Shown here: in pieces, positions 8,436 through 64,000 of the stretch
Layout of the letters: every line of letters begins with the position of its first letter
Numbering within the stretch: the stretch's first letter is position 1
Source: an uncultured delta proteobacterium
Lineage (GTDB): Bacteria; Desulfobacterota; Binatia; Binatales; Binataceae
NCBI GenBank assembly: GCA_963765675.1
Contig: CAVXXK010000001.1
Coordinates: 672,001 to 736,000 of the forward strand
Length of the DNA: 64,000 nt
Direction: 5' to 3'
Position numbers and translations under genes: made by a program
The notes under the pieces: model-generated
Told to the model about the DNA's origin: nothing
The model's input: the letters and a program-made list of their open reading frames with translations, nothing else
The model's database searches: none

Positions 8436-8538
8436 CGGATCAACTGCGGTGATGTGCACAAATTGGGTCTAACAAATTGATCGGTCCGGCACCGTCGATA
8501 GACCCCCTGAGGTTGCCAAACTCATCGCTCGCAGCAGC

Positions 8539-9447: not shown

Positions 9448-9453
9448 AGAACC

Positions 9454-47100: not shown

Positions 47101-47157
47101 GTATTACTACTGCTCAGTCGGCAGTAGAATGCTATATCACTTTCGAGGGAGGGAACC

Positions 47158-47538: not shown

Positions 47539-47575
47539 CGTCTCGAATCGGGCTCGGGCGCGCCTGCCTCACCCG

Positions 47576-48073: not shown

Positions 48074-48120
48074 CTGCTTGTCCTCCCGATTCAGTGATCC
48101 GGATTCGATCACCCATCCGA

Positions 48121-48216
48121 TGGCGGAGGGGGGAGGGAGTCGAACCCTCCGGCAACAATATTAGCCGCCAAGCCGGTTTTGAAGACCGGTGGGGCCACCG
48201 GGCCCCTTCCTCCTCC
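48121..48216 (-). tRNA. selC: tRNA-Sec (anticodon UCA)
   Basis: GGAGGAGG-AA-GGGGCC CGGT GGCCCC-A-CCGGT CT TCA AA ACCGG-long variable arm (GGCGGC/GTTGCC)-GAGGG TTCGACT CCCTC-CCCCCTCC-G-CCA. It is 96 nt with an 8/5 acceptor/T fold and a 6-bp D stem with 4-nt loop. Confidence 0.95.
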
Positions 48217-48319
48217 GATATAGCGACTCATGCCAGAAAGCCGTGCGGCGTCGCCACCGCGCGCGCGAACCTCAAATCGCGGCCACGATGGCGGGCCTCT
48301 CGTTCTCCGATACGGAGTC

Positions 48320-49099
48320 TCATTTGATGCTCTCCTGAAGGGCGATCATACTTCGCTGGCTGACTCTGATGAATCCTCTCCGGGGCCGATCCAGATCCAT
48401 GATCACGAGAATAACTAAAGTAATGATCAGAGACATTGTCACCGTAACCGAGAGGTTGCGCCAATCTCCTATCCCGCAGCCGAATCCTACAATTCCCATT
48501 GATAGAACTGCTACCAGAAAGAGAAGAAGTAGAACGGCCTCGGGCACGTGATTCTGTCTTGCGATGTCTCGCTTCGTATGGAGATCGATGACCTCGTTCA
48601 GCGAACTAATGAACAACCCCCCCGGGATGGAATGAGAATCCTGGTTGATTGCATCCATGGCTTGCGACCAGAGTTCTGTCTGCAACCGGTCGGTCGCCCT
48701 GTTAACTTCATCCAACCTCTCCGGATCGATTCCAGCCGCGTAGTATCTCAAGCGATCGGCGACGTACTCGCGCAGCAATGCGGCCACCTTGGTCCGATAT
48801 GGCTCCGCGAGCGCCTGCGAACGAAGGTAGGTGGTGCCAATTGCGTTCGCCTCTTCGAGGACCAATTGTCTTCGAGTCTCGAAACGTGACTCCGCCATCG
48901 CAAAAGAGAAAGCGAGCAGCAGAGCGAGCAGACCCACCATCGCAGCCTGCAGGGTCGTGAGTTCAGATTTTGCTGGGTCCTCGAGGCTGGTGCGAATCAC
49001 GCGCCCGCAACGAAAGCCAATTTCCGTCGCAATCAGCAGCAGTCCGAACAGCACCGTGACGACAAGGATTTCACTCCTTTGATACAGAAATTCAGCCAT
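48320..49099 (-). CDS. DUF4239/bestrophin-like membrane protein
   Basis: GLLALLLAFSF, RFETRRQLVLEEANAIGTTYLR and DLDRPRRG motifs. Confidence 0.8.
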   Translation of the reverse strand: MAEFLYQRSEILVVTVLFGLLLIATEIGFRCGRVIRTSLEDPAKSELTTLQAAMVGLLALLLAFSFAMAESRFETRRQLVLEEANAIGTTYLRSQALAEPYRTKVAALLREYVADRLRYYAAGIDPERLDEVNRATDRLQTELWSQAMDAINQDSHSIPGGLFISSLNEVIDLHTKRDIARQNHVPEAVLLLLFLVAVLSMGIVGFGCGIGDWRNLSVTVTMSLIITLVILVIMDLDRPRRGFIRVSQRSMIALQESIK

Positions 49100-49228
49100 G
49101 CGATCCGCTTCCTATGCGAGCAGATAGCCAGTGAGAGCCAAGGGCACGCGGACGGGCAAGGTCCCGGCCCATCATCTTCGCCACAAGATCTGGGTGTTCG
49201 AGACCTGTTTCAGGTCGCTCATCCAAGG

Positions 49229-49939
49229 TCAGCCGATCCAGCCACGATTCCGGAATCTGATCTTGAGCTCCTCTGCAATTGCATCGGCGGTCGCCTTGGC
49301 TCTACCTTCAAGTCCGCTCCTTCCGCTCGCCTCGCTATAGATTTTCGCCCCACCGACAACGATCAGGCCGATCGGGTTGGCGGTGGCAATCGCCACTGCG
49401 GCGGGCACGATCATCCCTGGGGTTTTGTTTCCGGAAGAGGTAAGCGTTCCTGACCCGAGTTTACGCCAGCCTTGAGGCGTGACCGCGTAGCCCTCCACCA
49501 CCGTATCCATCTCCGAAGTTCCGGCGCCGAATCCGATCACAAAACGCTGGACGGCGCTGCCGCCCTCGACCGAGACCAGATAACCGCGGATCACGCCGTC
49601 ACCGACTTGCGGCGACGATCCCGGCCCGGCCTGCACGGCGGAAAGTCCCATCGCGTTGATATCGGCAATCAGGTCCGCGGCGATAAGCTCGCCGAGCTGA
49701 CGGCCCTCTGCCAATTGCTCGGCGGTCGGTGGCGTGCTCGGCGCACTGATCGAACCTCTGATCGAGGAATCAGCGGGCATGTCGGCCGGGTTGGCGATGA
49801 AGTTGTACACCCAGATCCGATTGGGCCGCGCTAGCCCAGGGTTGCTCATCGGTGTCTGCTGAGTAACGTTCGTCGAAGCGCACCCGGCTACCAAGAACAG
49901 GGCGAGCACAGACAGTACAATACGGCTACTAGACCTCAT
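49229..49939 (-). CDS. DUF4410-like lipoprotein
   Basis: Lipobox VAGC; EGGSAVQRFVIGFGAG motif; ends in GWIG. Confidence 0.75.
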   Translation of the reverse strand: MRSSSRIVLSVLALFLVAGCASTNVTQQTPMSNPGLARPNRIWVYNFIANPADMPADSSIRGSISAPSTPPTAEQLAEGRQLGELIAADLIADINAMGLSAVQAGPGSSPQVGDGVIRGYLVSVEGGSAVQRFVIGFGAGTSEMDTVVEGYAVTPQGWRKLGSGTLTSSGNKTPGMIVPAAVAIATANPIGLIVVGGAKIYSEASGRSGLEGRAKATADAIAEELKIRFRNRGWIG

Positions 49940-50009
49940 CGGCGAACCTCCTTAAGGCAGTTGGCAGAGCTGATTACGATGCGGCATAGCTTAATCGACC
50001 GAGTCGAAT

Positions 50010-52430
50010 TCAGTTAATGCCCTCGTCGATTACGGCGTCCTGTCGCTCCTCTTCTTTTTGCACCGCCGCGGAGGGCGGTGTTACCGCGATCGTCACCTTA
50101 TCGATCGTGCCGGTAAATTTGTTGTCGCCCTCTTTGTAGTCTTCGCTCACCGGCGTGCCCAGGTCCTCGCCGACATCCTCGGTTTCATCGCCTGAGAAGA
50201 TGAACGGCACGGTGCGATCGATTCGGCCTTCGGCGACCTTTTGGCCGTTCACAAAAAGTTGCCCGCTGCCGCCCTTGCCAACCCCGCCGCCATCATAGTT
50301 GAACTCGAATTTAACCGTGACTTTGCCGGTCGGAAGCGCTTCTTTTGACTCGACTATATAGCGCTCCCGATCAAGCCAGTTATAGCAATACTTCAGCTTC
50401 CCGTCCTTCACATAGAGACTCCATCCGGCGAAGCGTCCGCCCTGCGCGATGATCACGCCTTGCGCACCCTCTTGCGGTATCTCGATTTCCGCGGTGACAG
50501 TGTGCGAGCGATTTTTGATGTCGAGAGTGGCGTTCTCCAGCATCGCGGTCATACCAGGATAAAGTGTCACGGAAGTCCGCCCCCACATCAGCGACGGCCT
50601 ACCCGCCAGTGTCGGCACAAAACGCTCGACACGCCTGTCGTCCAGCGGCAGGACGTTGTACTTTTCTGCCTCTGCGAGAAAGAGGCGTTGAAGTTCCTGA
50701 AGCTTGTCTGGATATTTCGCGGCGAGGTCCTGCGACTGACTAAAATCGTCATTGGTGTTGTAGAGCTCCCACTTATCCTCACTGAACTTGGGCGGCGTGC
50801 CCGCGACGTCCCACGGAATGCTATGCCGGGTCACCGCGGTCCAGCCGTCGTGGTAGATTCCGCGATTGCCGAACATCTCGAAGTATTGAGTTGTATGGGT
50901 TGTCGGCGCTTTAGCATCGGCAAAGGAGTAGACCATGCTCGTCCCTTCCATCGGGCTCTGCTTAATGCCATCGACGGTTTTCGGCTGCGGCAGTTTTGCG
51001 GCGGCCAGGATGGTCGGCGTGATATCGACGACATGATGCCACTGCGTGCGGATACCGCCGGCGTCCTTGATGCTTGCGGGCCACGAAATCACCATGCCGT
51101 TGCGCGTGCCACCGTAATGCGAGGCCACCTGCTTGGTCCACTGGAAGGGCGTATCGCCCGCGAGCGCCCATCCTACCGGAATGTGCGGAAAACTGTTCGG
51201 GCCGCCGATATCGTCGAGATGGGCTAGAATATTTTCGGTGGTGTCGGGAGCCCCGTTAAACGCCGCAATCTCATTGAGAGTCCCTGCCAGGCCGCCCTCC
51301 GCGCTCATGCCGTTGTCGCCAGCGATATAAATGACAAGTGTATTGTCGCGGACTCCCAAGTCTTTGAGACTATCAATCAATCGTCCAACCTCGTGGTCCG
51401 CGTACTCGCCAAAGCCAGCGTAGTTTTCCATTAGCCGCGCCGCGACCTTCTTGTCGTCGGCGCCCAGCTGGTCCCAGTGCTGGACGCTGGCGGGCCAAGG
51501 CGCGAGTCGGGTCGTCGCGGGCACCACGCCGAGCTGCTTCTGGCGCGCCAGCGTCTCCTCGCGATACTTGTCCCATCCCTCATCGAACTTGCCCGCATAC
51601 TTGTCCCGCCACTCTTTGGGCGTGTGGTGCGGTGCATGCAGAGCGCCGGGCGCGAAGTACACAAAGAACGGCTTATCAGGCGTCATCGTATGCTGGAATC
51701 GCATCCAGGCGATCGCCTGGTCGGTCATATCGGTCATGAAGTTGTAGCCTGGGGTGTGCGGGGGCTCGACGTGCGTCACTCCGTCGAAAATTAGCGGCGC
51801 CCACTGATTCGTCTCGCCGCCCAGAAAACCATAGAACTTTTCGAAACCGTCGCCGATCGGCCAGCGCGTGAAGGGTCCCGACACGCTGGTCTCCCAAACC
51901 GGCGTCTGGTGCATCTTGCCGAAGGCTGCGGTGTTGTATCCGTTCAACTTGAGGATTTCGGCGACCGTGGCAGCCTGGTTCGGCCGCATGCCGGTGTTCC
52001 CGGGTGCGCTCGTTGCCAGCTCGGTAATCGATCCCATCCCCACCGAATGATGATTGTGCCCGGTCAGCAGAGCCTCGCGGGTCGGCGAGCAGAGCGCGGT
52101 GGTGTGGAATTGTGTATAGCGCAGGCCCTCCTTCGCGAGCGCGTCCAACGTGGGCATGTTGACGCCGCCGCCGAAAGTGCTCGGCGCACCGAAGCCGATA
52201 TCGTCGAGCAGAATTACGACCACGTTGGGCGCACCCTCGGGCGGCCGGAGTAGCTTGATCGGCGGAAACTTGGCGTCGCGCGCGTCCAGCGGGACTTTGC
52301 CCGGATACTTGTATTGCGTGTCTGGAATCGGCAATTGAGTGCGATCGATTTGTTGCGCCGAAGCGGGGACTGTGCCCGTGCCTATCATCAGGCACAGTGC
52401 GGCTCCGAGGAACAGAAATAATTTTCTCAT
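50010..52430 (-). CDS. Secreted arylsulfatase (Cys-type FGly) with C-terminal LamG-like domain
   Basis: Signal peptide, PNVVVILLDDIG, LCSPTREALLTG (CxPxR), GYNTAAFGKMH, HAPH and DNG motifs. Confidence 0.95.
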   Translation of the reverse strand: MRKLFLFLGAALCLMIGTGTVPASAQQIDRTQLPIPDTQYKYPGKVPLDARDAKFPPIKLLRPPEGAPNVVVILLDDIGFGAPSTFGGGVNMPTLDALAKEGLRYTQFHTTALCSPTREALLTGHNHHSVGMGSITELATSAPGNTGMRPNQAATVAEILKLNGYNTAAFGKMHQTPVWETSVSGPFTRWPIGDGFEKFYGFLGGETNQWAPLIFDGVTHVEPPHTPGYNFMTDMTDQAIAWMRFQHTMTPDKPFFVYFAPGALHAPHHTPKEWRDKYAGKFDEGWDKYREETLARQKQLGVVPATTRLAPWPASVQHWDQLGADDKKVAARLMENYAGFGEYADHEVGRLIDSLKDLGVRDNTLVIYIAGDNGMSAEGGLAGTLNEIAAFNGAPDTTENILAHLDDIGGPNSFPHIPVGWALAGDTPFQWTKQVASHYGGTRNGMVISWPASIKDAGGIRTQWHHVVDITPTILAAAKLPQPKTVDGIKQSPMEGTSMVYSFADAKAPTTHTTQYFEMFGNRGIYHDGWTAVTRHSIPWDVAGTPPKFSEDKWELYNTNDDFSQSQDLAAKYPDKLQELQRLFLAEAEKYNVLPLDDRRVERFVPTLAGRPSLMWGRTSVTLYPGMTAMLENATLDIKNRSHTVTAEIEIPQEGAQGVIIAQGGRFAGWSLYVKDGKLKYCYNWLDRERYIVESKEALPTGKVTVKFEFNYDGGGVGKGGSGQLFVNGQKVAEGRIDRTVPFIFSGDETEDVGEDLGTPVSEDYKEGDNKFTGTIDKVTIAVTPPSAAVQKEEERQDAVIDEGIN

Positions 52431-53090
52431 CTTCGTCGCTCCTCTCAGGCATTTCGCATAGTGGCCTTATCCGCGCCGACCGAACGCGAAAACTTTCAGA
52501 TGTACATACAGCGATATATCAAGCATCCGCCAGCGCCGGCGAGGTCGAGATTTGCGATCGGAAACGGGCACAACCGAGCCCTTGTGGAACGAGTGATGGA
52601 TTTTGGCGCTGAAAAACAGGCGCAGTATGTTTTATATGGCTCTGTGCGCTCTTTGCGGAAATTGAAGGAGCGTCGTTCACTCGGGAATCATTCTCATTAA
52701 GTATTTCTTACAAGGACGTATCGTCCCGGCGACGGTCAAACTACCTAAGCGTCAGAAGCCAAATGGCTAGATTACGCCCGAGCCGCAAGCGTGGAGACAT
52801 TTCCTGGCGAAATAGTGACCCGTTGACCCGGCCAAACGCCTCGTCACCCTCGAGGGTCGCGGACGGGAAGGTCTTAACGCTCGAAGTTGAGAGAGAGGAG
52901 GATCTCACCGCGGCGAACCAGGAGATTACGCTCAAAGCGCCGGATGGCAGCCTCGAGACGATAATGGTTTCAACCCTAAATCGTCAGGCGCTGGCCTTAT
53001 CTCTCGAAAAGGAGGGTTGTTTAAAGGTACAAATGAAGCCAATCAAACGTCGACTAGAGAAGACCTTGGTGTGGACTTACGAGTTTCAGC

Positions 53091-53951
53091 ATGAACCGAT
53101 CACTCGTGATGATAACTCTGGCCCTGCTGGTTTGGAGCTTTGGTCCCGAGTGTATGGCTCAGCAGACTGCGACGCCGAGCAACATCCTGGCCGAGAGTGT
53201 GAGCGAGGAGGTTAACGACCCCACTGCCAGTCTCACCCAGGCGCAGCTCCAGGAGTTTTTTACTCCATCTCAATTCGGCACCAACGCTCAGTCCAACGCG
53301 CTGCAGGGCAGGTTCATCCTCGCGGTTCTCCCACACGGACCTCTGCCTCTCGCGCAGATTGTGAGACCCACGTTTTCCCTGCTCACCATCCCTCAAAACA
53401 AGGGCACGTCGACCCGCACCGAATTCGGCGACTCGCAACTCTTAGATCTATTTGTGATGCCGCGTTCGATCACGGAAGGGATCGATTTCAGATGGGCAAT
53501 AGGACCCTACTTTGTCTTTCCCACTGCGACTTCAAAATTGGCGGGACCAGGCGCATGGCAGGTCGGCCCGGCCGCGGCATTCCGGTACCGTCCCATTTCC
53601 AGGTTGCTGATTTCAGGGCTGATGCAGCAGGCAACTTCGTTTGCGTATACGTCCTCACAGCGAACTCCCATCTCCAGATTAACCTTCCAGCCAATGATCA
53701 GTTATCAGTTGGGACGTGGCTGGTACGCGAGATCGAGCGACGCGATTTGGAGCTTTAACCTGCGCCACGCCACTTCAACCATCATTCCGATTAGCGCTGG
53801 AGTTGGAAAGGTTTGGAACCTTTCCAACGGTGAGGCAATCAATGGCTCAATCGCACCTGAGTGGATGGCGTACCGACAATTTGCTCCCCGGGCCGAGCAA
53901 TTCACTCTGAAGTTCCAAGTGACTTTGCTGTTTCCCGCGGCGGAGCTGTGA
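53091..53951 (+). CDS. Secreted putative outer-membrane beta-barrel protein of a type often found near sulfatase genes
   Basis: Signal peptide, NDPTASL, GPYFVFPTAT, WQVGPA and IPISAGVGK motifs; ends with the beta strand FQVTLLFP. Confidence 0.7.
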   Translation: MNRSLVMITLALLVWSFGPECMAQQTATPSNILAESVSEEVNDPTASLTQAQLQEFFTPSQFGTNAQSNALQGRFILAVLPHGPLPLAQIVRPTFSLLTIPQNKGTSTRTEFGDSQLLDLFVMPRSITEGIDFRWAIGPYFVFPTATSKLAGPGAWQVGPAAAFRYRPISRLLISGLMQQATSFAYTSSQRTPISRLTFQPMISYQLGRGWYARSSDAIWSFNLRHATSTIIPISAGVGKVWNLSNGEAINGSIAPEWMAYRQFAPRAEQFTLKFQVTLLFPAAEL

Positions 53952-53976
53952 GTTGGGGCCAGGAAGGGAGGACGAC

Positions 53977-54483
53977 CTAGCGCAGAAACCTTTTGTACGA
54001 TTCCGGCAGTGGAATATCGAATCGCTCGCACAAGGCCTGAACATCGCGGAAATCTTTTTCGTCCGGTTCGTATTGGGTATGGAACTTTACTGCCCATGGC
54101 GCGGATATGCACTTGACGGAATAGCCATTGATCACACCCGTGCCGGTCAGCGAGTCGAGCGGATATGGAATTCCGTTAACGAAGTTCCCCTGAGCGTCGA
54201 ACGTATAGGCATGTACATCGAGCTTGCGCCCGTTCGAATCTGAAAGAACGAAATTGAATTCCGTCGCATCCGCGCGCGGAAGCTCTCGGTAGCCATGCGC
54301 TCCCAATAGTTTGCGCAGGGCCGGCACGTCCTTGTGCTGCACTGCCACGTCCAGATCTTCGTGGGACCGCGTTTGCCGGCCAAGCAACGCGTCGACGCCC
54401 CAACCTCCGTCAACATGTACGGCAATGCCTTCTTCCTGAAGCAGGAGAATTAATTCGACGGCCTCTTCATCGCGCAAGTTCAA
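53977..54483 (-). CDS. Nucleotidyltransferase, LnuA/ANT(2'')-like family
   Basis: VDGGWGVDALLGRQTRSHEDLD, LDVH, GTGVING and FHTQYE...KDFRDV motifs; TTG start after GAGGTG. Confidence 0.85.
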   Translation of the reverse strand: MNLRDEEAVELILLLQEEGIAVHVDGGWGVDALLGRQTRSHEDLDVAVQHKDVPALRKLLGAHGYRELPRADATEFNFVLSDSNGRKLDVHAYTFDAQGNFVNGIPYPLDSLTGTGVINGYSVKCISAPWAVKFHTQYEPDEKDFRDVQALCERFDIPLPESYKRFLR

Positions 54484-54502
54484 TTCACCTCACTTTCCCC
54501 GA

Positions 54503-54943
54503 TCAGTCTTCAGCGCCAGCGGTGGCCTTCGGATCGGCGGTTTTTGGCGGTGTGAGCAGGTACTTCATCGCGTAATCCGGATCGCCGCCCGCCTCTACCC
54601 AGATTGCCAGATTGGCGAGCGTCGGATCGTTGCGCGCGTTCGCCGTATCGCGCAGGATTCCAACCGTCGCCGCGCGTTCGCTGTCGAGCTGATCCTGCTT
54701 GGCGCGCAGAGTCTCAGCCTGCGCCTGTGTCAACTGTGCTTGCGCCTTAATTTGCTCGATATTCGCGTTGTTGAGATCAATCTGGGATTGGCTTGCGAAA
54801 TATCCCGTGGTGGTGCTGCCTGCCGTTCCGGTGAGCGAGCTGAGACCCTCGACCGCGGGAGAGGCTAGCGGAGCCGCCGCCGCGAAACATCCTTGCATCA
54901 GTGGAAGAGCCAGGCAGATAAATATTGGAACGATCCTGCGCAT
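54503..54943 (-). CDS. Lipoprotein, hypothetical
   Basis: GAGGAG RBS, lipobox MQGC and a coiled-coil segment. Confidence 0.7.
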   Translation of the reverse strand: MRRIVPIFICLALPLMQGCFAAAAPLASPAVEGLSSLTGTAGSTTTGYFASQSQIDLNNANIEQIKAQAQLTQAQAETLRAKQDQLDSERAATVGILRDTANARNDPTLANLAIWVEAGGDPDYAMKYLLTPPKTADPKATAGAED

Positions 54944-55132
54944 GAATAACTCCTCACAAAAGATTTATTCATCAATATAATTCTAGCCCATATGATTGCG
55001 GGCGAAGCCAGAACTTTTCGCACGGCAATCCGCGCGATCCATTACGCGGTTCGCGATAGAGCGGTCGCGTCCGCCTATGCTATACGGAAAAAGTTCGAAC
55101 ATCCCGGTTCTCATAACGACTGGAGGTAGATC

Positions 55133-55873
55133 GTGATCGAACAAGCTATCGAGATTAAGACGGCCGATGGCACCGCTGACGGATTCATCTTCAGGCCCGA
55201 CGGCACGGCCAAACTTCCCGGTGTTATCCATCTAACCGATATCGGCGGAATCCGGCCTTCGCATCGCACGCTGGCTGAGCGCGTCGCCGCCAAGGGCTAC
55301 GTGGTGTTGATGCCAAACGTGTTCTACCGGACCGGGCGTCCTCCCATGTTCGACTTCACGCCGAAGATGGGCGAAGAACGCACCATGAAACGCTTCGGAC
55401 AGCTCGCCGCCCCGATGACGCCCGAGGCCCAGGAACGCGACGCCGCCGCGTATGTCGATTTTCTGGCTGCGCACGCCGGCGTAAGCGGCGGCAAAATGGG
55501 AGTCGTGGGATACTGCTTCACGGGAGGGATGGCGATGCGCACCGGCGCCGTGCGGCCGGAAAAGATCGGCGCGGTGGCTTCGTTTCACGGCGGCGGCCTG
55601 TATACCGAAACGCCCGCCAGTCCGCATCACGTGCTGCCGCGCGTGAAGGCGCGGCTCTACTTCGGCCACGCGATTAAGGATCCGAGCATGCCCGAGGATG
55701 CGATCAAGAAACTCGACGCCGCGCTCGCGGCGTGGGGCGGCAAATCCCAGAGCGAGGTTTACGACGACGCCTATCATGGTTGGACGACTCCAGACGCGCC
55801 GGTCTATAACCAACACCAAGCCGAACGCGCGTTCGAAAAGCTGATCGCGCTATTCGCCGAAACTCTGAAATAG
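55133..55873 (+). CDS. Dienelactone hydrolase family protein
   Basis: DIGGIR, PNVFYR, GYCFTGG (nucleophile Cys), SFHGG and HGW motifs. Confidence 0.92.
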   Translation: MIEQAIEIKTADGTADGFIFRPDGTAKLPGVIHLTDIGGIRPSHRTLAERVAAKGYVVLMPNVFYRTGRPPMFDFTPKMGEERTMKRFGQLAAPMTPEAQERDAAAYVDFLAAHAGVSGGKMGVVGYCFTGGMAMRTGAVRPEKIGAVASFHGGGLYTETPASPHHVLPRVKARLYFGHAIKDPSMPEDAIKKLDAALAAWGGKSQSEVYDDAYHGWTTPDAPVYNQHQAERAFEKLIALFAETLK

Positions 55874-55894
55874 TTTGCCTGGAGAAAACCCACG

Positions 55895-56674
55895 ATGGGG
55901 CGGCTTGACGGAAAAATTGTTCTGATAATCGGCGGCGGAGCCGACGGCCCGCCCCGCGAAGGCGAGACCGTCGCAATCGGCAACGGACGCGCCACCGCGA
56001 TCCAGTGCGCCCGCGAAGGCGCTGCGGTGATGGCCGCTGATTTGAAGCTTGAGCTAGCCCAGGAGACCGTCGCAGCGATTCGCGCCGAGGGCGGACGCGC
56101 GGCTGCGGTCGCATGCGATGCGAGCCGCGAAGAGGATTGCCGGGCGGCGGTCGAGGCGGCAGTGCGTGAATTTGGCGCACTGCATCTGCTGGTCAACAAT
56201 GTCGGAATCGGAATCGGTGGAAATTTGCTCAAAACCTCGACCGAGGCTTTCGACAAAATGTACGCGGTCAACCTGCGCAGCCATTTCCTGACAATGCGCT
56301 ACGCGGCGCCAGAAATCGCTAAAGCTGGCGGCGGCGCGATCGTGAACGTCTCCTCGATGGCGGCGCTGCGCAGCAACTCTCTCATCCCATACGAAGCCAC
56401 AAAGGCCGCGCTTCTTGGGCTCTCGCGATCGGCCGCAATGACGCTGGCGCGCGACAAGATCCGCGTCAACACGATCCTGCCGGGGCTCATCAACTCGACC
56501 ATGGTCCGGCGCGCGATCGGCGATCGCGAGGCGGCGGTAGCACCGCGAATCCCGATGCGTCGGCAAGGCACGCCCTGGGAAATTGCGAAGGCTATTGTGT
56601 TCCTGCTCTCCGACGACGCGTCGTACATCACAGCTACCGAGTTGATCGTGGACGGCGGCCTGTCCGCACGCTGA
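55895..56674 (+). CDS. Short-chain dehydrogenase/reductase
   Basis: LVNNVG, IVNVSS, YEATK (YxxxK), IRVNTILPG and VDGG motifs. Confidence 0.92.
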   Translation: MGRLDGKIVLIIGGGADGPPREGETVAIGNGRATAIQCAREGAAVMAADLKLELAQETVAAIRAEGGRAAAVACDASREEDCRAAVEAAVREFGALHLLVNNVGIGIGGNLLKTSTEAFDKMYAVNLRSHFLTMRYAAPEIAKAGGGAIVNVSSMAALRSNSLIPYEATKAALLGLSRSAAMTLARDKIRVNTILPGLINSTMVRRAIGDREAAVAPRIPMRRQGTPWEIAKAIVFLLSDDASYITATELIVDGGLSAR

Positions 56675-56785
56675 GGCCCGCATCTCGCGCCGCTCGGCGG
56701 TACCTGTTCGCCCCGATGCCCGCGGTATATGGTGAGGTATATTGATAAGCGGTTAAGAGCCCAACAGCCTCGATAGGTGACGCGG

Positions 56786-57658
56786 ATGCCGGTTGAATAT
56801 ATTCCCCGCACACGCAAACTTTATGACGAGTTCGCGCCCTACCGGTGGGTGGAAAACGACGCCGCTTCGATCCCGTGGACACCTCTCGCCAAGCCGCTTC
56901 GTGAGTCGCGCGTCGCACTGATCAGTTCAGGCGGAATCATGTACCGTGATCAGCCTCGCTTTCATCGCGAGGACGCGTCGTACCGACGAATCCCGAAGAA
57001 CGCGCGCCGCGAAGATCTGAGCATATGGCATTTCGGCTACAAAACCGCCGACGCCGAGAAAGATCCCAATTGTGTCTTCCCGCTAGAGCCGATGCGCACG
57101 CTCGAACGCGAGGGAGTTATCGGCGAGTTGTGCGATCCTGCGCTGAGTTTCATGGGCGGTATCTATTCGGCGCGCAAGGTGCGCGACGAACTCGCGCCCC
57201 AAATCGTTGATGAACTCCATCGCGCGCACGCCGACGCCTTCTTTTTGGTGCCCGCATGACCCGTATGCCATCAGTCCGTTGGACTGATTGCCCGCGCGGT
57301 CGAGGAGAGCGGAATTCCGACTCTATCGATGACCTCGGCGCTCGATATCACGCAGGCGGTCAAACCGCCGCGCGCAGTGTTCCTGAACTTTCCGCTGGGG
57401 CATCAGACCGGCAAGCCAAGCGACCCCGAATTGCAGCACCGGATCGTCAGCGACGCGATGCGCGCGTTCGAGGCGATCAACCGGCCCGGTGCGATCATCG
57501 AACTGCCCTACGTCTGGGATCCGAACGATCGCACGTGGGAAGAAATCGATTACACCAAGGGATGGATGCCTGAGCGGCCGCCACGCGAGGATGCCGACCT
57601 CATTGAGGCCGAGCGCGTCGCCAAATGGACGCAAGGCGGACCGAAAGATCGCGGGTGA
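56786..57658 (+). CDS. PrdB/GrdB-family selenoprotein B; Sec encoded by in-frame TGA at 57257-57259
   Basis: ORFs 56777-57259 and 57329-57658 share one frame. Read-through gives FLVPA-U-PVCHQSVGLIARAVEESGIPT (UxxC). The N-part has PWTPLAKPLRESRVALISSGG and DPNCVFP. A hairpin follows the TGA, and selC is in the same window. Confidence 0.9.
57270..57288 (+). promoter_or_regulatory. Putative bacterial SECIS stem-loop
   Basis: ATCAGTCC-GTT-GGACTGAT is a perfect 8-bp stem starting 11 nt after the UGA, with the apical-loop G 19 nt after it. Confidence 0.75.
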
Positions 57659-57691
57659 ACGTTTTCGAACGATCGAGCGGAGGAGGACAGG

Positions 57692-58081
57692 ATGATGAGT
57701 GGTAGTATTGCGACAATAATGGGGCTCGCGTTGCTCGAATATTTAATACTCGGAGGCATGGTCGGACGAGCGCGCGGTACGTATAACGTCCCGGCGCCAG
57801 CCACTACGGGCGATCCGATTTTCGAGCGCTACTTCCGGGTGCATCAGAACACGCTTGAGTCGCTGATCGTATTTATTCCGGCGTTGTGGCTGTTCGCCAT
57901 TTACCTGAACAAGCCAATCGCGATCGCGCTCGGGCTGATTTTCATTGCCGCGCGAATCATCTATGCGGCTGGATATATCAAGGCGCCCGAGAAACGCGCG
58001 GCTGGCGCGGGCCTCACGTTCCTGGTAAACGCGGCCCTCGTGATCGGCGGCCTGGTCGGAATCGCCATCCACAAGCTGTAG
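57692..58081 (+). CDS. MAPEG family membrane protein
   Basis: VGRARGTYNVPAPATTGDPIFERYFRVHQNTLE and RIIYAAGY...KR motifs. Confidence 0.9.
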   Translation: MMSGSIATIMGLALLEYLILGGMVGRARGTYNVPAPATTGDPIFERYFRVHQNTLESLIVFIPALWLFAIYLNKPIAIALGLIFIAARIIYAAGYIKAPEKRAAGAGLTFLVNAALVIGGLVGIAIHKL

Positions 58082-58289
58082 CGCGACCGGGTAGCGGAAC
58101 GCGTCCACGATCATAATCCCCGCGCGCGGGAGCCACGCTCGCGGGGAATTACTTTCCAAAGATGGCGGACAGGTTTACGGCCCGCGCCCGAGCGGCTAGA
58201 GTCGGGGATCTGCGCCGGCATTTTTCGGCGCGAGAATTCCTGCGCGTAGATTCCCGTCAAGATATCTTAAACAAGGAGACTCATCTTCA

Positions 58290-58814
58290 ATGGCTCAAGA
58301 ACGCAAAGGCGCCGTCACGATGCGCGGCAATCCCATGACCCTGGTCGGCCCCGAAATCAAAGTTGGACAAAAGGCTCCCGCCTTCGCCTCAGTCGGCAAG
58401 GGTCTCGCGCCCGCGTCGCTGGATCAGTTCAAGGGCAAGGTCAAGATCATCAGCGCCGTGCCCTCGATCGATACCCCCGTGTGCGACGCAGAAACCCGGC
58501 GCTTCAACGAGGAAGCCTCGAAGCTTCCCGGCGATGTGCAGATCCTGACCATCTCGATGGATCTGCCGTTCGCGCAGGCGCGATGGTGCGGCGCGGCGGG
58601 CGTCGACAAGATCACAATGCTCAGCGACTACCGGGCGGCCGAGTTCGGGGAAAAATACGGCGCGCTCATAAAGGAGCTGCATCTGCTCGCGCGGGCGGTG
58701 TTCGTGGTCGACAAGAACGACAACGTTACCCACGTCGAGTATGTGAAGGAAGTCGCGAACCATCCGGACTACGACGCCGCGCTCAACGCCGCGAAAAAAG
58801 CGGCGGCCGCCTGA
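58290..58814 (+). CDS. tpx: Thiol peroxidase (atypical 2-Cys peroxiredoxin)
   Basis: VPSIDTPVC, TRRFNE, SMDLPFAQARWCG and LLARAVFV motifs. Confidence 0.95.
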   Translation: MAQERKGAVTMRGNPMTLVGPEIKVGQKAPAFASVGKGLAPASLDQFKGKVKIISAVPSIDTPVCDAETRRFNEEASKLPGDVQILTISMDLPFAQARWCGAAGVDKITMLSDYRAAEFGEKYGALIKELHLLARAVFVVDKNDNVTHVEYVKEVANHPDYDAALNAAKKAAAA

Positions 58815-59671
58815 TGCCGGACGCGACTCGTAAGCGTCCGGCGAGATCGTCTACGGCATCCGTTTCGGCGCCTAAACTCTCGCCAGTCACGCCCAGGCGT
58901 GGCTTGACCGGCGATGCGGGCGCGCGAGGCACGCGCACGCACGAGTTCCCGATAAATCTGAAGCGGGGATTGTACGAGGCGATTTTCCATCGCCGCGACA
59001 TCCGCGAGTTTCTGCCAGGCCCGATTCCTGACGCGACCCTGGCGCGAGTGTTGATCGCGGCGCATCATGCGGCCAGCGTCGGCTTCACGCAGCCGTGGGA
59101 TTTTATCGTGATCCGCGACCGCCCGCGCCGGGAGAAGGTGAAGCAGGTCTTCGAGACCGAACGCGCCAAGAACGCCGCCAAGTTCTCGGGCGCGCGCCGC
59201 GAGAAATTCCTCTCGCTCAAGCTCGAGGGCATTCTCGACGCTCCGATCAACTTGCTCGTCACCTGCACTCCCGGCCGTTTCGGCAAGAGCGTGCTCGGCA
59301 AGGTCAGTATCCGCGAGGTTGAGATCTATTCCGCATGCCTCGCGGTCGAGAATATCTGGCTCGCTGCGCGCGCCGAGGGCCTTGGAGTCGGATGGGTCAG
59401 TATCCTGCGAAACGACGCGTTGGCGGAAATTTTCGCGATCCCGCAGGACGTGATTCCTCTGGCCTACCTGTGCGTCGGCTACGTGAAGGATTTTCCGCTG
59501 CGTCCTCTGCTCGCGACTGCAGGATGGGCCGAGCGGCTGCCGCCGCGCGAATTGATTCACCTTGATTCATGGACGGGAACCGCTGACCGATCAGACGCGC
59601 TGGTGCGCGAGATCGAAAACCCCAAGATCTGGAGCGGGATCCTGCCTGACGAAGTGCCCGCAGAGCAGTAG
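58814..59671 (+). CDS. bluB: 5,6-dimethylbenzimidazole synthase
   Basis: RRDIREF, AASVGFTQPWDF, LKLEGI and WLAARAEGLGVGWVSI motifs; cobalamin gene context. Confidence 0.88.
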   Translation: MPDATRKRPARSSTASVSAPKLSPVTPRRGLTGDAGARGTRTHEFPINLKRGLYEAIFHRRDIREFLPGPIPDATLARVLIAAHHAASVGFTQPWDFIVIRDRPRREKVKQVFETERAKNAAKFSGARREKFLSLKLEGILDAPINLLVTCTPGRFGKSVLGKVSIREVEIYSACLAVENIWLAARAEGLGVGWVSILRNDALAEIFAIPQDVIPLAYLCVGYVKDFPLRPLLATAGWAERLPPRELIHLDSWTGTADRSDALVREIENPKIWSGILPDEVPAEQ

Positions 59672-59677
59672 GCGCGC

Positions 59678-60343
59678 TTGAACCGGTCCGTTCCGTGGCG
59701 ATGGCGAATCACGGCGCGCACTTTGATCGTGCGGTTTCCTGTTCCTTATCGCACGCTCGGCTGGGCTCCGCTCGGCGGCGGCTATGCGCGCACCCGGCTC
59801 ATCAGCAATCACCAGGTTGACAAATCTGATCGCCGCGCGACCGAGGCTCCGCAAATTGTTTTGCGCCGATGGATCCGCGCACTCGAGCCGGGAGCGGGTG
59901 CCGCCGTATCAATGATGACCGGGGCGCAGGTCGGCAACGCCGTCTACGTATGCGTGCGGCGAGGCGCGCTGGCAGTTGCCGCGTGGTGCACCGCGGGATG
60001 CTCCAATGCGCTGCGCGCGGGCGATCGCGCGACGGTTGCCGACACGCGGCCCGGCACGATCAACCTGATCGTCGCGATAAACGAGCCTCTGGGCGACGCC
60101 GCACTGGCCGAAGCGATCCAGATCGCGACCGAGGCGCGCGTGCTCGCGGTCCAGCAGACGGCACTCATGAGCACACGTTCGGGACTGCCCGCGACCGGAA
60201 CCGGCACGGACTGTATCGTGATCGCGGCGCCCGCCGGCCCGCGTGCGCATCCGTGGTGCGGCAAGCATACGCTTTTGGGCGAGCTGATCGCACGCGCTGC
60301 CCTCAAGAGCTGCGCCCGCGCGCTCGCGCGCAGCCGGTCGTGA
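59678..60343 (+). CDS. cbiZ: Adenosylcobinamide amidohydrolase
   Basis: MMTGA, TAGCSNA, GTINLIV, ATGTGTDC and GKHTLLGELI motifs. Confidence 0.88.
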   Translation: MNRSVPWRWRITARTLIVRFPVPYRTLGWAPLGGGYARTRLISNHQVDKSDRRATEAPQIVLRRWIRALEPGAGAAVSMMTGAQVGNAVYVCVRRGALAVAAWCTAGCSNALRAGDRATVADTRPGTINLIVAINEPLGDAALAEAIQIATEARVLAVQQTALMSTRSGLPATGTGTDCIVIAAPAGPRAHPWCGKHTLLGELIARAALKSCARALARSRS

Positions 60344-61308
60344 GCTACGCATTCCATCTTTCTATTCCGATGCTGGCTGCGGCGCTCGCGCTTGACCTTA
60401 TGCTCGGCGATCCGCGATGGCTGCCGCATCCGGTGCGCGCGCTCGGGATGCTTATTGAAAGAGGCGAACATCTCCTGCGCACCGGCGACGCGAGGCGCGA
60501 TCTCGTGCGCGGCGCGATCCTGACGGCGTGCGTCGTCGGAATCTCGGTAGGCGCGGCGTGGGCGATTGTCGCGCTCGCGAACTGGATTCATCCGCTAGTG
60601 GGTGCCCTCGCGGCAATTGGGGTCGCGTGGACGACGCTTGCGCTATGCGGCCTCGATCAGGCTGCGGGCGCGGTGGAAGGCGCGCTGGCGGCCGGCGACG
60701 ATGGAGCTGCCCGGCGCGCAATTCCCGCATTGGTGGGGCGCGACCCGGACGCTCTGGATCGTGCAGGGATGGCGCAGGCATGCGTCGAATCGGTGGCCGA
60801 AAACGCGAGCGACGGTGTGATCGCGCCGCTTCTATATCTGTTCGCGGGCGGACCCGTCGCCGCGATCGCCTACAAGGCGATCAATACGCTCGATTCGATG
60901 ATCGGATACCGCGACGAGCGCTACCTGTATTTCGGCCGCGCCGCCGCGCGCCTCGACGACGTCGCCAACTGGATCCCTGCGCGCCTGAGCGCGATCTGTA
61001 TTGCGATCGCGGCACAGTTAACCGCAGGCCGTGCGCGCGAAGCCGCCGCCGTGGTCATTTCCGACGCGCGGTCGCACGCGAGCCCCAATGCGGGTTACCC
61101 CGAAGCCGCGATGGCCGGAGCGCTGGGCGTGAGGCTCGGCGGCGCCGCGATCTACGGCGGTGAGCTCGAGCAGCGCGCGGTCCTGGGTAAATCCGGACGC
61201 GAAGCGGGCGTCGCGGATATCGGCGCCGCACGAAACCTGTTGCGCATCGCGACGCTCGTCGCATTCGTCGTGCTTGCAGCGGCGCGCTCGATCCTCCAAA
61301 TGTTGTGA
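60340..61308 (+). CDS. cbiB: Adenosylcobinamide-phosphate synthase
   Basis: GDPRWLPHPV, LVGRD, ESVAENASDGVIAP, YKAINTLDSMIGY and SPNAGYPEAA motifs. Confidence 0.93.
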   Translation: MSYAFHLSIPMLAAALALDLMLGDPRWLPHPVRALGMLIERGEHLLRTGDARRDLVRGAILTACVVGISVGAAWAIVALANWIHPLVGALAAIGVAWTTLALCGLDQAAGAVEGALAAGDDGAARRAIPALVGRDPDALDRAGMAQACVESVAENASDGVIAPLLYLFAGGPVAAIAYKAINTLDSMIGYRDERYLYFGRAAARLDDVANWIPARLSAICIAIAAQLTAGRAREAAAVVISDARSHASPNAGYPEAAMAGALGVRLGGAAIYGGELEQRAVLGKSGREAGVADIGAARNLLRIATLVAFVVLAAARSILQML

Positions 61309-61345
61309 AGAGCCTTGCGTGACTCATTCCAGTGAACTGATTCGT

Positions 61346-62419
61346 ATGAGCTCAATTCCTATCGACCGGCGGCACGGCGGTAATCCTCCCGTTGGCACGC
61401 TCGATTTCAGCGCGAGCATCAACCCTCTGGGACCGCCGGCGGCGGCGATCGCCGCGTATCACGACGCCGCCGCGCGGATCAGCGCGTATCCTCCTGCGCG
61501 CAGCGAGCGGCTCGAGCGCGCGCTCGCGAAGTGGTTCGCTGTCGAGCCCGCCAATGTTCTGGCTGGAAGCGGCACCACCCAGTTGATTCATCTGCTGGCG
61601 CGTACTCTCGGCGTGGCGCGCGCCGCGATCGCGATCCCGACCTTCAGCGAATTCGCCAACGCCCTCGCGATAGCCGGCGTTTCCACCGCGCCGATCTATC
61701 TCGATCCAGATCGCGGCTACGCGCTCGATCTCGCCGGGATCGACGGCGCACTCTCTGCCGGTGCCCGCGCGATTTTTATCGGGCGACCGAATAGCCCGAC
61801 CGGCTCGATGCTCGCCGCTGACACCATTCGCGAGATAGCCGATCGCTGCACGAACCGCGGCGCAGTCTGCGTCCTCGACGAGGCGTTCATCGATTTCGCG
61901 GAGGCGGAATCGTCAGCGCAGCTCGCAGCATCGCGCACCGGCCTTTTCGTCCTGCGCTCGCTCACCAAGTGTTTCGCGATTCCCGGTCTGCGACTCGGAT
62001 GCATCATCTCGGCGCCTGCCGCAATCGCTAACCTCGCCACGTCGATCGAGCCGTGGTCGGTGAACGTCGCCGCCGAGGCGGTCGGGCTTGCGTGTCTCGC
62101 CGAGGCGCATGGATTCCTCGCGCATACGCGCCAGGTGGTCGCGGCCGAGCGGAAATTCCTTGTGCGCGCTCTCGGTGCGATCGACGGGATTCACGTTTTT
62201 CCTTCGGCTGCCAATTTCCTGATGCTGCGAATCTCGGACGAGCCGGCGCCGGGCGCTTTCGCCGCGCATCTGCTGAACGACGGGATCGTGATACGCGATC
62301 TGGCGACGATGCCGGCTGCGGGCGCGGGACTCTACCGGATCGGAATCCGGTTGCGCGCCGACAATGAGCGCCTGATCGGCGCCGCGACGCGGTGGCCAGC
62401 CGCAAGGGCGGCAGGTTGA
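61346..62419 (+). CDS. cobD: L-threonine-O-3-phosphate decarboxylase
   Basis: HGG, DFSASINPLG, PNSPTG, DEAFIDF and RSLTKCFAIPGLRLG motifs; cobalamin gene context. Confidence 0.88.
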   Translation: MSSIPIDRRHGGNPPVGTLDFSASINPLGPPAAAIAAYHDAAARISAYPPARSERLERALAKWFAVEPANVLAGSGTTQLIHLLARTLGVARAAIAIPTFSEFANALAIAGVSTAPIYLDPDRGYALDLAGIDGALSAGARAIFIGRPNSPTGSMLAADTIREIADRCTNRGAVCVLDEAFIDFAEAESSAQLAASRTGLFVLRSLTKCFAIPGLRLGCIISAPAAIANLATSIEPWSVNVAAEAVGLACLAEAHGFLAHTRQVVAAERKFLVRALGAIDGIHVFPSAANFLMLRISDEPAPGAFAAHLLNDGIVIRDLATMPAAGAGLYRIGIRLRADNERLIGAATRWPAARAAG

Positions 62420-62459
62420 TACGCACGCGCCTGCGTGATGCGATAGCCGCGAACTTCCG

Positions 62460-63524
62460 ATGACCCTGCTTGAAGAAACAATCGCCGCGATCGCCCCGCT
62501 CGACGAAGCCGCCGCGCGCGCCGCCAGGACACGGCTCGATTCGCTCACCAAACCTCCCGGCAGCCTCGGAAGCCTTGAGGATATCGTGCAGCGCTACGCG
62601 GCTATTCGCGGCGATGGCTTGGCGCGGATGGGCAGCGGTACGCTTGCGGTGTTCGTGGCGGATCATGGTATCGCCGACGAAGGCGTCAGCGCATTTCCCC
62701 AAGCCGTCACGCTCGAGATGCTGCGCAATATCGCCGGCGGCGGCGCGGCGATAAGCGTTCTCGCGCGGCGCCTCGGCTACCAACTTGTCGTCGTCGACGT
62801 CGGCGTGAAGAGTGACACTAGTGCGTCGCCGCTTGCGGGCGTCACTTATCGACGAATCGGCTCGGGCACCAAGAATTTCGCGCACGGACCCTCAATGAAC
62901 GCGCGCGAGGTGCTCCGCGCGCTCGCGGCGGGCATCGAAATTGCCCGGCAGATTGCCGCGTCGGGCGCGACGCTGATCGGGATCGGTGAGATGGGTATCG
63001 CCAACAGCACCTCGGCCGCGGCAATCCTGTGCGCGACGACCGGACTTGCGCCCGCGGAGCTTGCGGGACGCGGAACCGGACTCGACGACGCAGGCGTGCG
63101 CCACAAGATCGGCGTGCTCGAACGCGCACTCGCGCGTCATCGCGATGCGCTCGTCAGCGGCGAAGCGATTCTGGCGTCAGTCGGCGGATTCGAGATCGCC
63201 GCGATGGCGGGAGTATGCATCGCAGGCGCAGCGCTGCGCATTCCGGTCGTGGTCGACGGATTTATCGCGACCGCGGCGGCGGCGGCAGCCGAGCGAATCC
63301 GTCCGGGCCTGTTCGATTACCTGTTTTTCGCGCATCGCTCGGCCGAGGGCGGCCATTCGCGCGCACTCGAACGGATGCGCGTGCGGCCGCTTCTCGACCT
63401 CGGGATGCGCCTGGGCGAGGGGACGGGCGCCGCGCTTGCGATGAACCTGATCGAGGCTGCGGTCGCGATGTTTCACTCGATGGCGACGTTCGAGTCGGCC
63501 GGCGTTTCGGGCAAGCTGCCGTAG
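62460..63524 (+). CDS. cobT: Nicotinate-nucleotide-dimethylbenzimidazole phosphoribosyltransferase
   Basis: LTKPPGSLGSLE, ADHG, GEMGIANST, GRGTG, DGFI and MRLGEGTGA motifs. Confidence 0.96.
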   Translation: MTLLEETIAAIAPLDEAAARAARTRLDSLTKPPGSLGSLEDIVQRYAAIRGDGLARMGSGTLAVFVADHGIADEGVSAFPQAVTLEMLRNIAGGGAAISVLARRLGYQLVVVDVGVKSDTSASPLAGVTYRRIGSGTKNFAHGPSMNAREVLRALAAGIEIARQIAASGATLIGIGEMGIANSTSAAAILCATTGLAPAELAGRGTGLDDAGVRHKIGVLERALARHRDALVSGEAILASVGGFEIAAMAGVCIAGAALRIPVVVDGFIATAAAAAAERIRPGLFDYLFFAHRSAEGGHSRALERMRVRPLLDLGMRLGEGTGAALAMNLIEAAVAMFHSMATFESAGVSGKLP

Positions 63525-63529
63525 TCGCG

Positions 63530-64000
63530 ATGAGCACCGCGCCAGACACCGGGCCTCTCGACTCGCCTGTGCGGGGCGTGGTCGCAGAGTTGCGCATAGC
63601 GGCGAGCTTTCTGACGATCGTTCCGATTCTTCCACGCAACCGGATCGACGATGAATCGGTCGCGGCGTCCTTTGGATGGTTCCCGCTTGTCGGGTTCGCG
63701 ATCGCGGTCGTTCTTTCGCTCGAGGATTTTATTCTCGCGCGATTTTTCGACCTGACGATTCGCTCGATCCTGATCGTGCTCTCGCTGACGATCGTCACCG
63801 GCGCGCTGCATCTGGACGGACTCGCCGACACGGCGGATGCTCTCGGCGCGGGCCGCGATCGCGATCGTGCGCTGGAGATTCTGCGCGATAGCCGGATCGG
63901 CAGCTTCGGCACCGCGGCGATTTTTTTCGCGCTCACGCTTAAGGTTGTCGCGCTCGCGACGCTCTACGGAGCGCGTCGTTACACCGCGATCTTTGCGGCG
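63530..64000 (+). CDS. cobS: Adenosylcobinamide-GDP ribazoletransferase (partial, runs off window)
   Basis: Not in the ORF track. It translates with FLTIVP, WFPLVG, TGALHLDGLADTAD and ILRDSRIGSFG. Confidence 0.93.
   Translation, partial: MSTAPDTGPLDSPVRGVVAELRIAASFLTIVPILPRNRIDDESVAASFGWFPLVGFAIAVVLSLEDFILARFFDLTIRSILIVLSLTIVTGALHLDGLADTADALGAGRDRDRALEILRDSRIGSFGTAAIFFALTLKVVALATLYGARRYTAIFAA

Follow-up and report, generated by a model that had tools for sequence, protein, structure and literature searches.

The 64,000-nucleotide stretch analysed here (the window; positions 672,001 to 736,000 of contig CAVXXK010000001.1 in the Binataceae assembly GCA_963765675.1) carries, at 56786–57658 on the forward strand, the gene for a short selenoprotein that resembles PrdB, the selenoprotein of D-proline reductase. 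The gene opens with an ATG at 56786 and closes with a TGA at 57656–57658, giving 290 codons plus the stop, and between these points its frame is broken solely by a second TGA at 57257–57259. With this codon read as selenocysteine (Sec, U158), the translation is a protein of 290 residues that runs through FFLVPA-U158-PVC161-HQSVGLI; the Sec-spanning stretch is LVPA-U-PVCHQSVGLIAR. The second member of the U-x-x-C motif, C161, is encoded by a TGC at 57266–57268 and is nearly invariant in our homologue alignment A3. Translation table 11 splits the gene into two open reading frames (ORFs), at 56777–57259 and 57329–57658. The sequence-only reading that drew attention to the locus had joined these two same-frame ORFs through the TGA and had predicted that standard gene callers would separate them; both statements hold, and database copies of the family are mostly N-terminal pieces.

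The in-frame TGA is conserved over a wide range of divergence. A homologue is present in 33 of 41 related genomes, and the codon at the Sec column is TGA in all 56 matches that span it, from 93% down to 27% identity; the comparison has 59 rows, three of which are C-terminal fragments that fall short of the column and were not counted. Orthologues from the same family, at 71–93% identity, have one TGA each. One row of alignments A2 and A3 (L022) comes from an unpublished genome (G010), which is counted among the relatives and on which no claim rests. A search of 401 genomes of the phylum with the profile of alignment A3 (E up to 1e-20) gave matches in 123, and TGA was found in 150 of the 150 matches listed. 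Of 4828 library representatives with E up to 0.001, the 150 best were compared at the Sec column: 88 have Cys there, some of which may be annotated Sec residues, as U is displayed as C in these sequences; 23 stop just short of the column, four read Trp, and the others have Gly, Ser, Thr, Asp and further residues. The four Trp residues suggest that the depositors' gene callers translated TGA under another code. A C-x-x-C motif is present in 76 of the 121 representatives that have a residue at this position. Most near-length database matches (110 of the 120 listed) cover just 35–54% of the query and are mainly N-terminal pieces of 159–211 residues, because gene callers cut the Sec gene at its TGA. 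In some full-length database relatives this column is instead occupied by Thr, Ser, Gly or Asp (P0011, P0014, P0018 and P0020; for example VPV-T-PVCHQ). As for the stop itself, homologues have TGA or Cys here and not a non-TGA stop.

Two loci in the collection carry additional copies of the gene. A contig from a Syntrophaceae metagenome-assembled genome (L052, 3253–5100) has tandem members, the first a Sec form (VPV-U-PKCHQ) and the second a Cys form whose frame is broken several times and which resembles a decaying duplicate. At another locus (L043, genome G018, 6895–7156), two short fragments with 60–68% identity to residues 197–283 lie about 2 kb from an intact orthologue and are probably the remnant of a second gene copy.

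A hairpin of the selenocysteine insertion sequence (SECIS) type follows the TGA. It consists of an 8-bp stem closed by a GUU loop (ATCAGTCC-GTT-GGACTGAT, 57270–57288), begins 10 nt past the TGA, and is extended by two outer G-C pairs that join 57267–57268 to 57290–57291, so that the whole element occupies 57267–57291 on the forward strand. Its apical loop starts with G. The surrounding 71-nt stretch folds with a free energy of -29.1 kcal/mol (z = -3.05), and one of 200 shuffled sequences folds as well. In the 25 distinct sequences of alignment A2, 98.4% of the hairpin cells are paired, in comparison to 13–33% when the 3' arm is slid by one to three columns. Compensatory changes with both sides altered occur in two stem pairs, in five sequences each (for example GGA→GGT opposite TCC→ACC, and CAT→CAC opposite ATT→GTT), and this covariation runs through synonymous third positions or conservative codon changes. 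Cys-form genes provide a negative control, which is ambiguous: the upper stem and triloop are lost, and a weaker lower stem of about 5–8 bp persists in most of the 14 loci because the His-Gln and Leu-Val codons are complementary. The full stem with a GUN triloop is restricted to TGA forms. These observations are consistent with Sec insertion at UGA158 being aided by the hairpin, and the gene appears to encode a genuine selenoprotein in which UGA158 is recoded, a conclusion supported as well as sequence alone allows.

The selenocysteine machinery is encoded in the same genome (4.5 Mb in 16 contigs, 95.6% complete and not closed). A tRNA-Sec with anticodon UCA lies on the reverse strand at 48121–48216, 8.6 kb upstream of the selenoprotein gene, and was identified with both ARAGORN and Rfam (RF01852, 72.4 bits against a gathering score of 47); the Rfam scan of 47000–64000 found this tRNA alone, with no cobalamin riboswitch at the gathering score. 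Between the tRNA and the gene cluster lies a reverse-strand gene for a sulfatase of 806 residues with a C-terminal concanavalin/laminin-G-like domain (50010–52430). The genes selA, selB and selD are all present. The selD gene (G000 C1:995003–997912, reverse strand) has an in-frame TGA and directly adjoins selB, and its product would itself be a selenoprotein or a Sec/Cys-site form. The selA gene carries a 1-nt frameshift in this assembly, located at G000 C1:1402591–1402601 (about 2288–2298 of L002) in a CCGCCGCGAG stretch; of the two resulting frames, the second contains the pyridoxal-phosphate-lysine motif FSGDKLLGGPQ. None of the four bridging contigs, which come from three related soil-metagenome runs, has the extra base, and selA is in a single frame in eight of ten same-genus genomes, being cut by contig ends in the other two (G001 and G008). 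Because of these bridging contigs and the intact same-genus copies, we take the lesion to be either an error of assembly or a change of very recent origin. Among the sequencing runs searched, none contains at least half of the selA stretch, and no RNA data set with the sequence was listed. The claims of the sequence-only reading on the selenocysteine side therefore stand: the tRNA-Sec is confirmed at the stated distance, the hairpin is in place and its structure is conserved with covariation in relatives, and the genome has the full set of sel genes, with the reservation that selA is interrupted as assembled.

The protein matches the Pfam GRDB family (PF07355) over residues 28–155 with 48.3 bits (cut-off 22), and its gene is the sole GRDB gene in the genome. 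The best NCBIfam model is PrdB (TIGR04483), which is matched over profile positions 20–234 of 238 with 162.5 bits; since this is far under the 300-bit cut-off, the protein is not a PrdB equivalog but one of the short, PrdB-like forms within the GRDB superfamily. All 22 short homologues that we sampled, covering five subfamilies by motif and two lineages of Cys forms, are likewise under the cut-off, with 94–211 bits for this model. GrdB-type models match only with their C-terminal half (profile positions of about 219–421 of 431), at 63.5 bits against a cut-off of 65.45 for TIGR01918 and 58.5 against 602.2 for TIGR01917; the GrdB-type equivalogs overall give 58–63 bits against cut-offs of 602–800. 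Annotation in public resources does not make this distinction: many homologues are labelled 'D-proline reductase (dithiol) PrdB' by the Joint Genome Institute (JGI), and the clusters of a 57%-identical database relative (P0002), drawn from Pseudomonadota, Myxococcota and Actinomycetota, are auto-named only as glycine-reductase or selenoprotein-B family. One subfamily has the motif U-P-L-D-H-Q and includes paralogues and phylum homologues (L044, L045 and L078–L084); a DUF1847 gene adjoins its members in L078 and L080, and 2-hydroxyacyl-CoA dehydratase genes adjoin them in L078, L080 and L082.

A sequence search of the PDB (E up to 1) returned no related chain, and Foldseek gave no PDB match at E up to 0.001. 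The AlphaFold model has a Rossmann-like alpha/beta domain with a predicted local distance difference test (pLDDT) score of 94.1 and a predicted template modelling (pTM) score of 0.92. A wide search with VIA-align returned generic Rossmann-like folds with a best Z of 8.6, inside the noise range stated for the tool; the top matches are LacI/periplasmic-binding and short-chain dehydrogenase/reductase (SDR) folds (Z of 7–8.6, in the same noise range), and the top 50 matches, all within that range, include no thioredoxin-fold entry. The fold itself offered no lead to a function. In the model U158 lies between the strand formed by residues 151–155 and the helix formed by residues 159–174, a placement that is usual for a redox-active CxxC. 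Three invariant polar residues, D93, E173 and R196, lie far from the U-x-x-C motif.

The partner subunits of the classical reductases were not found in this genome. Searches of the 95.6%-complete assembly gave no match to PF09338 (Gly_reductase, the PrdA/GrdE family), and the ten same-genus genomes likewise had none. The search itself works, since the family was detected in three of the 41 relatives (G012, G015 and G034; E of 1e-80 to 1e-97), where the PF09338 gene stands beside a long GrdB-type gene whose product is 27–31% identical to the studied protein. PF04723 (GRDA/GrdA) also had no match in the genome, in a weaker search that had no positive control anywhere, and the best match to PrdC (TIGR04481) reached 41.6 bits against a cut-off of 490. 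Thirty of the 33 relatives with a homologue have no PF09338 partner. In the phylum sample PF09338 was found in 21 of the 401 genomes, and 20 of these belong to the 123 genomes that carry a Sec gene of the GRDB type; as 103 of these 123, about five of six, are without the partner, the orphan state is normal for the short form and not an oddity of this genome.

The host carries four matches to heme-copper oxidase subunit I (COX1; 175–538 bits), a BluB equivalog (TIGR02476, 233.6 bits against a cut-off of 150) and a glutathione synthetase (228.7 bits). The heme-copper oxidases and BluB point to an aerobe; by its gene content the host is an oxygen-respiring, glutathione-making organism and not a Stickland fermenter. 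The sequence-only reading had noted that no prdA, grdE or grdA neighbour was present, had taken BluB as a sign of oxygen use, and had proposed an orphan selenoprotein that does something other than Stickland reduction. The absence of partners extends from the neighbourhood to the whole assembled genome, the BluB assignment is borne out and the oxidases add to the case for an aerobe, and a different function is supported by the missing partners, the sub-cut-off PrdB score and the aerobic host. Two qualifications apply to this reading: most of the phylum genomes with such a gene are orphans in the same sense, and the family was known earlier.

The selenoprotein gene lies within a co-directional cluster on the forward strand. 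The cluster begins with a dienelactone-hydrolase-family gene (55133–55873; Pfam DLH, 137.1 bits), followed by an SDR gene (55895–56674; adh_short_C2, 206.5 bits) that ends 111 nt upstream of the selenoprotein gene. A MAPEG-family membrane protein, belonging to a glutathione-transferase family, is encoded 33 nt downstream (57692–58081; PF01124, 77.1 bits), and the genes for the thiol peroxidase Tpx (58290–58814; Pfam Redoxin/AhpC-TSA; NF001808, 217.8 bits against a cut-off of 123) and for the 5,6-dimethylbenzimidazole synthase BluB (58811–59671) come next. BluB starts a stretch of cob genes that continues with CobD, a CobC-like aminotransferase and CobT and extends to 63524; it is probably context and not part of the selenoprotein system. 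A promoter scan of 54900–60000 gave one promoter-like site, at 54953–54981, a count no higher than in shuffled sequences, and a terminator scan likewise gave no more sites than shuffles.

This arrangement was compared among 11 orthologous loci, the window and ten others, all from one taxonomic family. MAPEG is directly downstream in six of them, Tpx is within two genes downstream in seven, a cytosolic glutathione transferase (GST) is directly upstream in three, an SDR gene is upstream in five, and a luciferase-like monooxygenase is found within two genes upstream in four. GST also adjoins a homologue of 50% identity that belongs to another family (L038), as well as a paralogue (L046). In one same-genus locus (L029, genome G005, 7400–11126), about 3.7 kb without a called gene, as judged with a crude caller, separates the SDR gene from the selenoprotein gene; in comparison to the 111 nt in the window this may be an insertion.

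Cys-encoding relatives were sought with a pattern scan of species genomes, which is able to find Cys or Thr forms only. The scan returned 19 loci from Burkholderiales, together with three from Desulfobacterales and Syntrophaceae. The Burkholderiales homologues have the motif VCPVCHQ and are 31–34% identical to the studied protein. In all 19 loci a small redoxin of the glutaredoxin fold with a CAPC motif (74–95 residues) starts 2–18 nt past the stop codon of the enzyme gene, and in 18 of them a family III CoA-transferase then follows. The redoxin is closest to YruB/NrdH-like models, under their cut-offs. A protein of about 550–600 residues with three or four rhodanese domains is encoded divergently upstream in nine of the 19 loci (tblastn; L053–L071), and a match to it is found more than 2.5 kb downstream in two further Burkholderiales loci; the rhodanese gene is another sulfur-transfer link. 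In a Bordetella bronchiseptica record (L066, 2926–3603) a gene for a pertussis-toxin S2/S3-type subunit lies about 2.4 kb from the Cys-form operon and serves as a landmark only.

Complex prediction for the Burkholderiales enzyme with its redoxin gave a score of 0.75 (the median of 0.80, 0.75 and 0.53), in comparison to 0.02 for the best control. The mark used for this score is attained for 116 of 157 solved complexes, compared with 2 of 215 mismatched pairs, and is a rough guide here since we supplied our own 18-row alignments. The runs share at least 35% of their contacts, with a partner pLDDT of at least 82. The predicted interface involves enzyme residues 132–139 and 166–168 and redoxin residues 10–15 and 34–46; its confident part places enzyme residues 166–168 (Cys-Pro-Val of the CPVC motif, with C166 equivalent to Sec) against redoxin residues 10–15 (Thr-Pro-Phe-Cys-Ala-Pro). 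The redoxin CxxC would thus face the C/U-x-x-C centre of the enzyme in the predicted complex. No solved structure of the enzyme family exists on which the docking model could have drawn.

Taken together, these results suggest that the gene probably encodes a stand-alone U-x-x-C selenoenzyme of a short GRDB branch, re-reduced by a thiol system, and not a subunit of a pyruvoyl-dependent Stickland reductase. The catalytic cycle that we infer would centre on U158-P-V-C161, where a helix of the Rossmann-like alpha/beta fold starts. The selenolate of Sec158 would be the nucleophile that attacks the substrate, and Cys161 would act as the resolving thiol, turning the adduct into a selenenylsulfide. 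Re-reduction of the selenenylsulfide would fall to a small thiol system (glutathione and/or a redoxin of the glutaredoxin fold) in place of the clostridial PrdC or thioredoxin. In Burkholderiales this reductant would be the dedicated redoxin; in the clade of the window it would be a general redoxin or proteins linked to glutathione. Judged by family chemistry and recurrent neighbours, the reaction would most likely be a reductive cleavage at the carbon beside a carbonyl in a small acid, a coenzyme A (CoA) ester or a glutathione conjugate. An electrophile adduct, glutathione conjugate or CoA ester is proposed as substrate because GST and MAPEG are found here and CoA enzymes elsewhere. The enzyme would serve in detoxification or catabolism within an aerobe.

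A number of observations weigh against this proposal. The docking is predicted for Cys-form relatives of about 32% identity and not for the studied protein itself; the clade of the window has no such redoxin beside the gene, and just three weak glutaredoxin-like matches (31–36 bits) were found elsewhere in the genome. Thioredoxin reductase, and not glutathione, is the usual reductant of NrdH-type redoxins; as the Burkholderiales redoxin resembles this class, the glutathione part of the proposal is drawn solely from the adjacency of GST and MAPEG. Synteny among the 11 loci is in part inheritance, as they belong to one taxonomic family, and the neighbour counts are given without a background rate. 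Eighteen loci from other families of the phylum, with 101 neighbour proteins, have no GST, MAPEG, glutaredoxin or peroxiredoxin (the scan leaves out 22 loci of the U-G-x-C-N subfamily, L085–L100 and L102–L107); their neighbours are DUF1847, Usp and assorted genes of CoA metabolism. The context of thiol genes is therefore specific to the clade. Some subfamilies with the U-P-L-D motif keep Sec and have Asp in place of the Cys at the +3 position, and Ser, Gly or Thr takes the place of Sec in some representatives, so that a dithiol-type cycle of U-x-x-C cannot fit the whole family. Finally, selA is read in two overlapping frames in this assembly on account of the one extra base.

One alternative takes the TGA as a true stop; the locus would then be a pseudogene in decay or a pair of small genes, with the hairpin arising as a by-product of the codons for His-Gln and Leu-Ile. 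Gene callers do give two ORFs, most of the listed database matches cover only part of the query, CAT-CAG naturally complements CTG-AT, Cys forms retain the weaker lower stem, and selA is frameshifted in this assembly. Nevertheless, we give this explanation almost no credence: a single TGA interrupts a frame that is open and conserved on both sides down to 27% identity, full-length relatives have Cys at the Sec column, both halves fold as one confident domain, the stem covaries and is complete with its GUN triloop in TGA forms only, and the extra selA base is found in none of the bridging contigs. That the protein is an ordinary B subunit of a D-proline or glycine-type reductase, with partners in the unassembled 4–5% of the genome or too diverged to detect, is in turn very improbable. 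Its nearly full-length match to PrdB, which is the best NCBIfam match, and the JGI names for its homologues would agree with such a role, the genome is not closed, and the control genomes gave no PF09338 or PF04723 signal at all. This explanation is largely refuted by the score, which is far under the equivalog cut-off, by the absence of PF09338 from this and the same-genus genomes when it is detectable in three relatives, by the 103 of 123 phylum genomes that lack it, by the PrdC score, and by an oxygen-respiring host in which the neighbours are detoxification and thiol genes and not prd or grd genes.

The two remaining alternatives accept a partner-less selenoprotein and differ in its chemistry. 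The protein might be a selenium redox carrier or antioxidant, for example the electron donor of Tpx or a reductase of protein disulfides or glutathione mixed disulfides. Its U-x-x-C at a helix start resembles the motif of thiol-disulfide oxidoreductases, Tpx is close by in seven of the 11 orthologous loci, MsrA/B adjoins one distant homologue (L109), and most bacterial selenoproteins counted in a survey are thiol-redox proteins (PMC1088965). We consider such a role rather unlikely, as a 290-residue Rossmann-like domain with invariant D93, E173 and R196 looks like an enzyme with a small-molecule pocket, the characterised family members are substrate reductases, the U-x-x-D subfamilies lack a second thiol, and the CoA-transferase in 18 of the 19 Burkholderiales operons points to a small-molecule pathway. 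Alternatively, Sec might serve as nucleophile or acid-base in a non-redox enzyme, such as an isomerase, racemase or lyase with an amino-acid derivative or a CoA ester as substrate, and the thiol neighbours would be coincidental. Genes that handle CoA are recurrent neighbours in several lineages (family III CoA-transferase, ADP-forming acyl-CoA synthetase, acyl-CoA dehydrogenases, 2-hydroxyacyl-CoA dehydratase and enoyl-CoA hydratase), and variants with Ser, Gly, Thr or Asp are known for the Sec or the +3 column. Against this, C-x-x-C and U-x-x-C dominate (76 of the 121 representatives noted above have C-x-x-C), the predicted docking of the redoxin on the motif and the translational coupling of the two genes favour redox turnover, and CoA genes are common in these genomes and were counted without a background rate; we hold a non-redox enzyme to be quite improbable. 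A broader extension of the favoured reading is speculative and on balance doubtful: the short, partner-less PrdB-like proteins may be widespread stand-alone Sec or Cys enzymes that bring the chemistry of the Stickland reductases to oxygen-respiring bacteria, reductively cleaving C-N, C-S or C-halogen bonds beside a carbonyl, without a pyruvoyl subunit and recycled by a dedicated glutaredoxin-fold redoxin or by glutathione. The substrates would be glutathione conjugates or further electrophile adducts produced by the adjacent GST and MAPEG proteins here, and a CoA-activated acid in Burkholderiales.

The sequence family itself is not new; selenoproteome surveys have carried it under the name 'PrdB' since 2005. 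The Sargasso Sea survey reported 42 PrdB sequences with UxxC, the third most abundant of the known selenoprotein families (Zhang, Fomenko and Gladyshev 2005; PMC1088965), and the Global Ocean Sampling (GOS) survey reported 235, among the most abundant families (Zhang and Gladyshev 2008; PMC2398784). Reviews place D-proline reductase under TIGR04483 with UxxC and, in the sections concerned, do not separate a partner-less form (PMC9312934, PMC13188914). GrdB-type proteins act on glycine, sarcosine, betaine and proline, in which they cleave the bond that joins a leaving group to the alpha-carbon, and a GrdB-like pair is a candidate for the reductive defluorination of fluoroacetate (PMC10838667). 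A full-text literature search for PrdB-like and GrdB-like proteins and the family accessions, with subscription journals outside its scope, found no paper on partner-less PrdB-type proteins. No new kind of system is revealed here; what is new is the evidence against a role as proline-reductase subunit and a candidate redox partner. In public databases most members of the family survive only as 160-residue stumps named "D-proline reductase", and the present analysis turns this mislabelled and truncated annotation into a testable hypothesis on a common selenium enzyme of soil and ocean bacteria. Culturable relatives that encode Cys allow functional work without the problems of selenocysteine expression.

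Comparison with PrdB of the Clostridium sticklandii and Clostridioides difficile type (TIGR04483) reveals the same single-domain architecture, encoded Sec and U-x-x-C motif, the last as tabulated in the reviews (PMC9312934, PMC13188914). The studied protein differs in being longer, by about 30 residues at the N-terminus and 45 at the C-terminus, and in its score of 162.5 bits against 300; neither PrdA nor PrdC was found in its aerobic host, and its neighbours are MAPEG, GST, Tpx and SDR genes instead of prd genes. With GrdB, GrdF and GrdH (TIGR01917, TIGR01918, NF040794 and NF040795) it shares homology to their C-terminal half, the Pfam GRDB domain and Sec at the equivalent place, whereas it lacks the N-terminal half of about 210 residues, and no GrdA or GrdE was found in its genome; the long GrdB-type genes with an adjacent GrdE in three of the 41 relatives encode proteins that are just 27–31% identical to it. 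The gene qualifies for the 'PrdB' family of the surveys, which is defined by pfam07355 homology, an in-frame TGA, U-x-x-C and a SECIS element and is abundant in oxic samples; that family is filed under D-proline reduction, and partner subunits and gene context are not addressed in the relevant parts of those surveys. The Cys-form operons of Burkholderiales (Lacisediminimonas profundi, L054; Bordetella bronchiseptica, L066) encode enzymes of the same fold family and similar length (about 290 residues; 96 bits with TIGR04483 for L066), with the same motif except for Cys in place of Sec and likewise without PrdA-type neighbours; they differ from the clade of the window in their use of Cys and in their dedicated redoxin and CoA-transferase.

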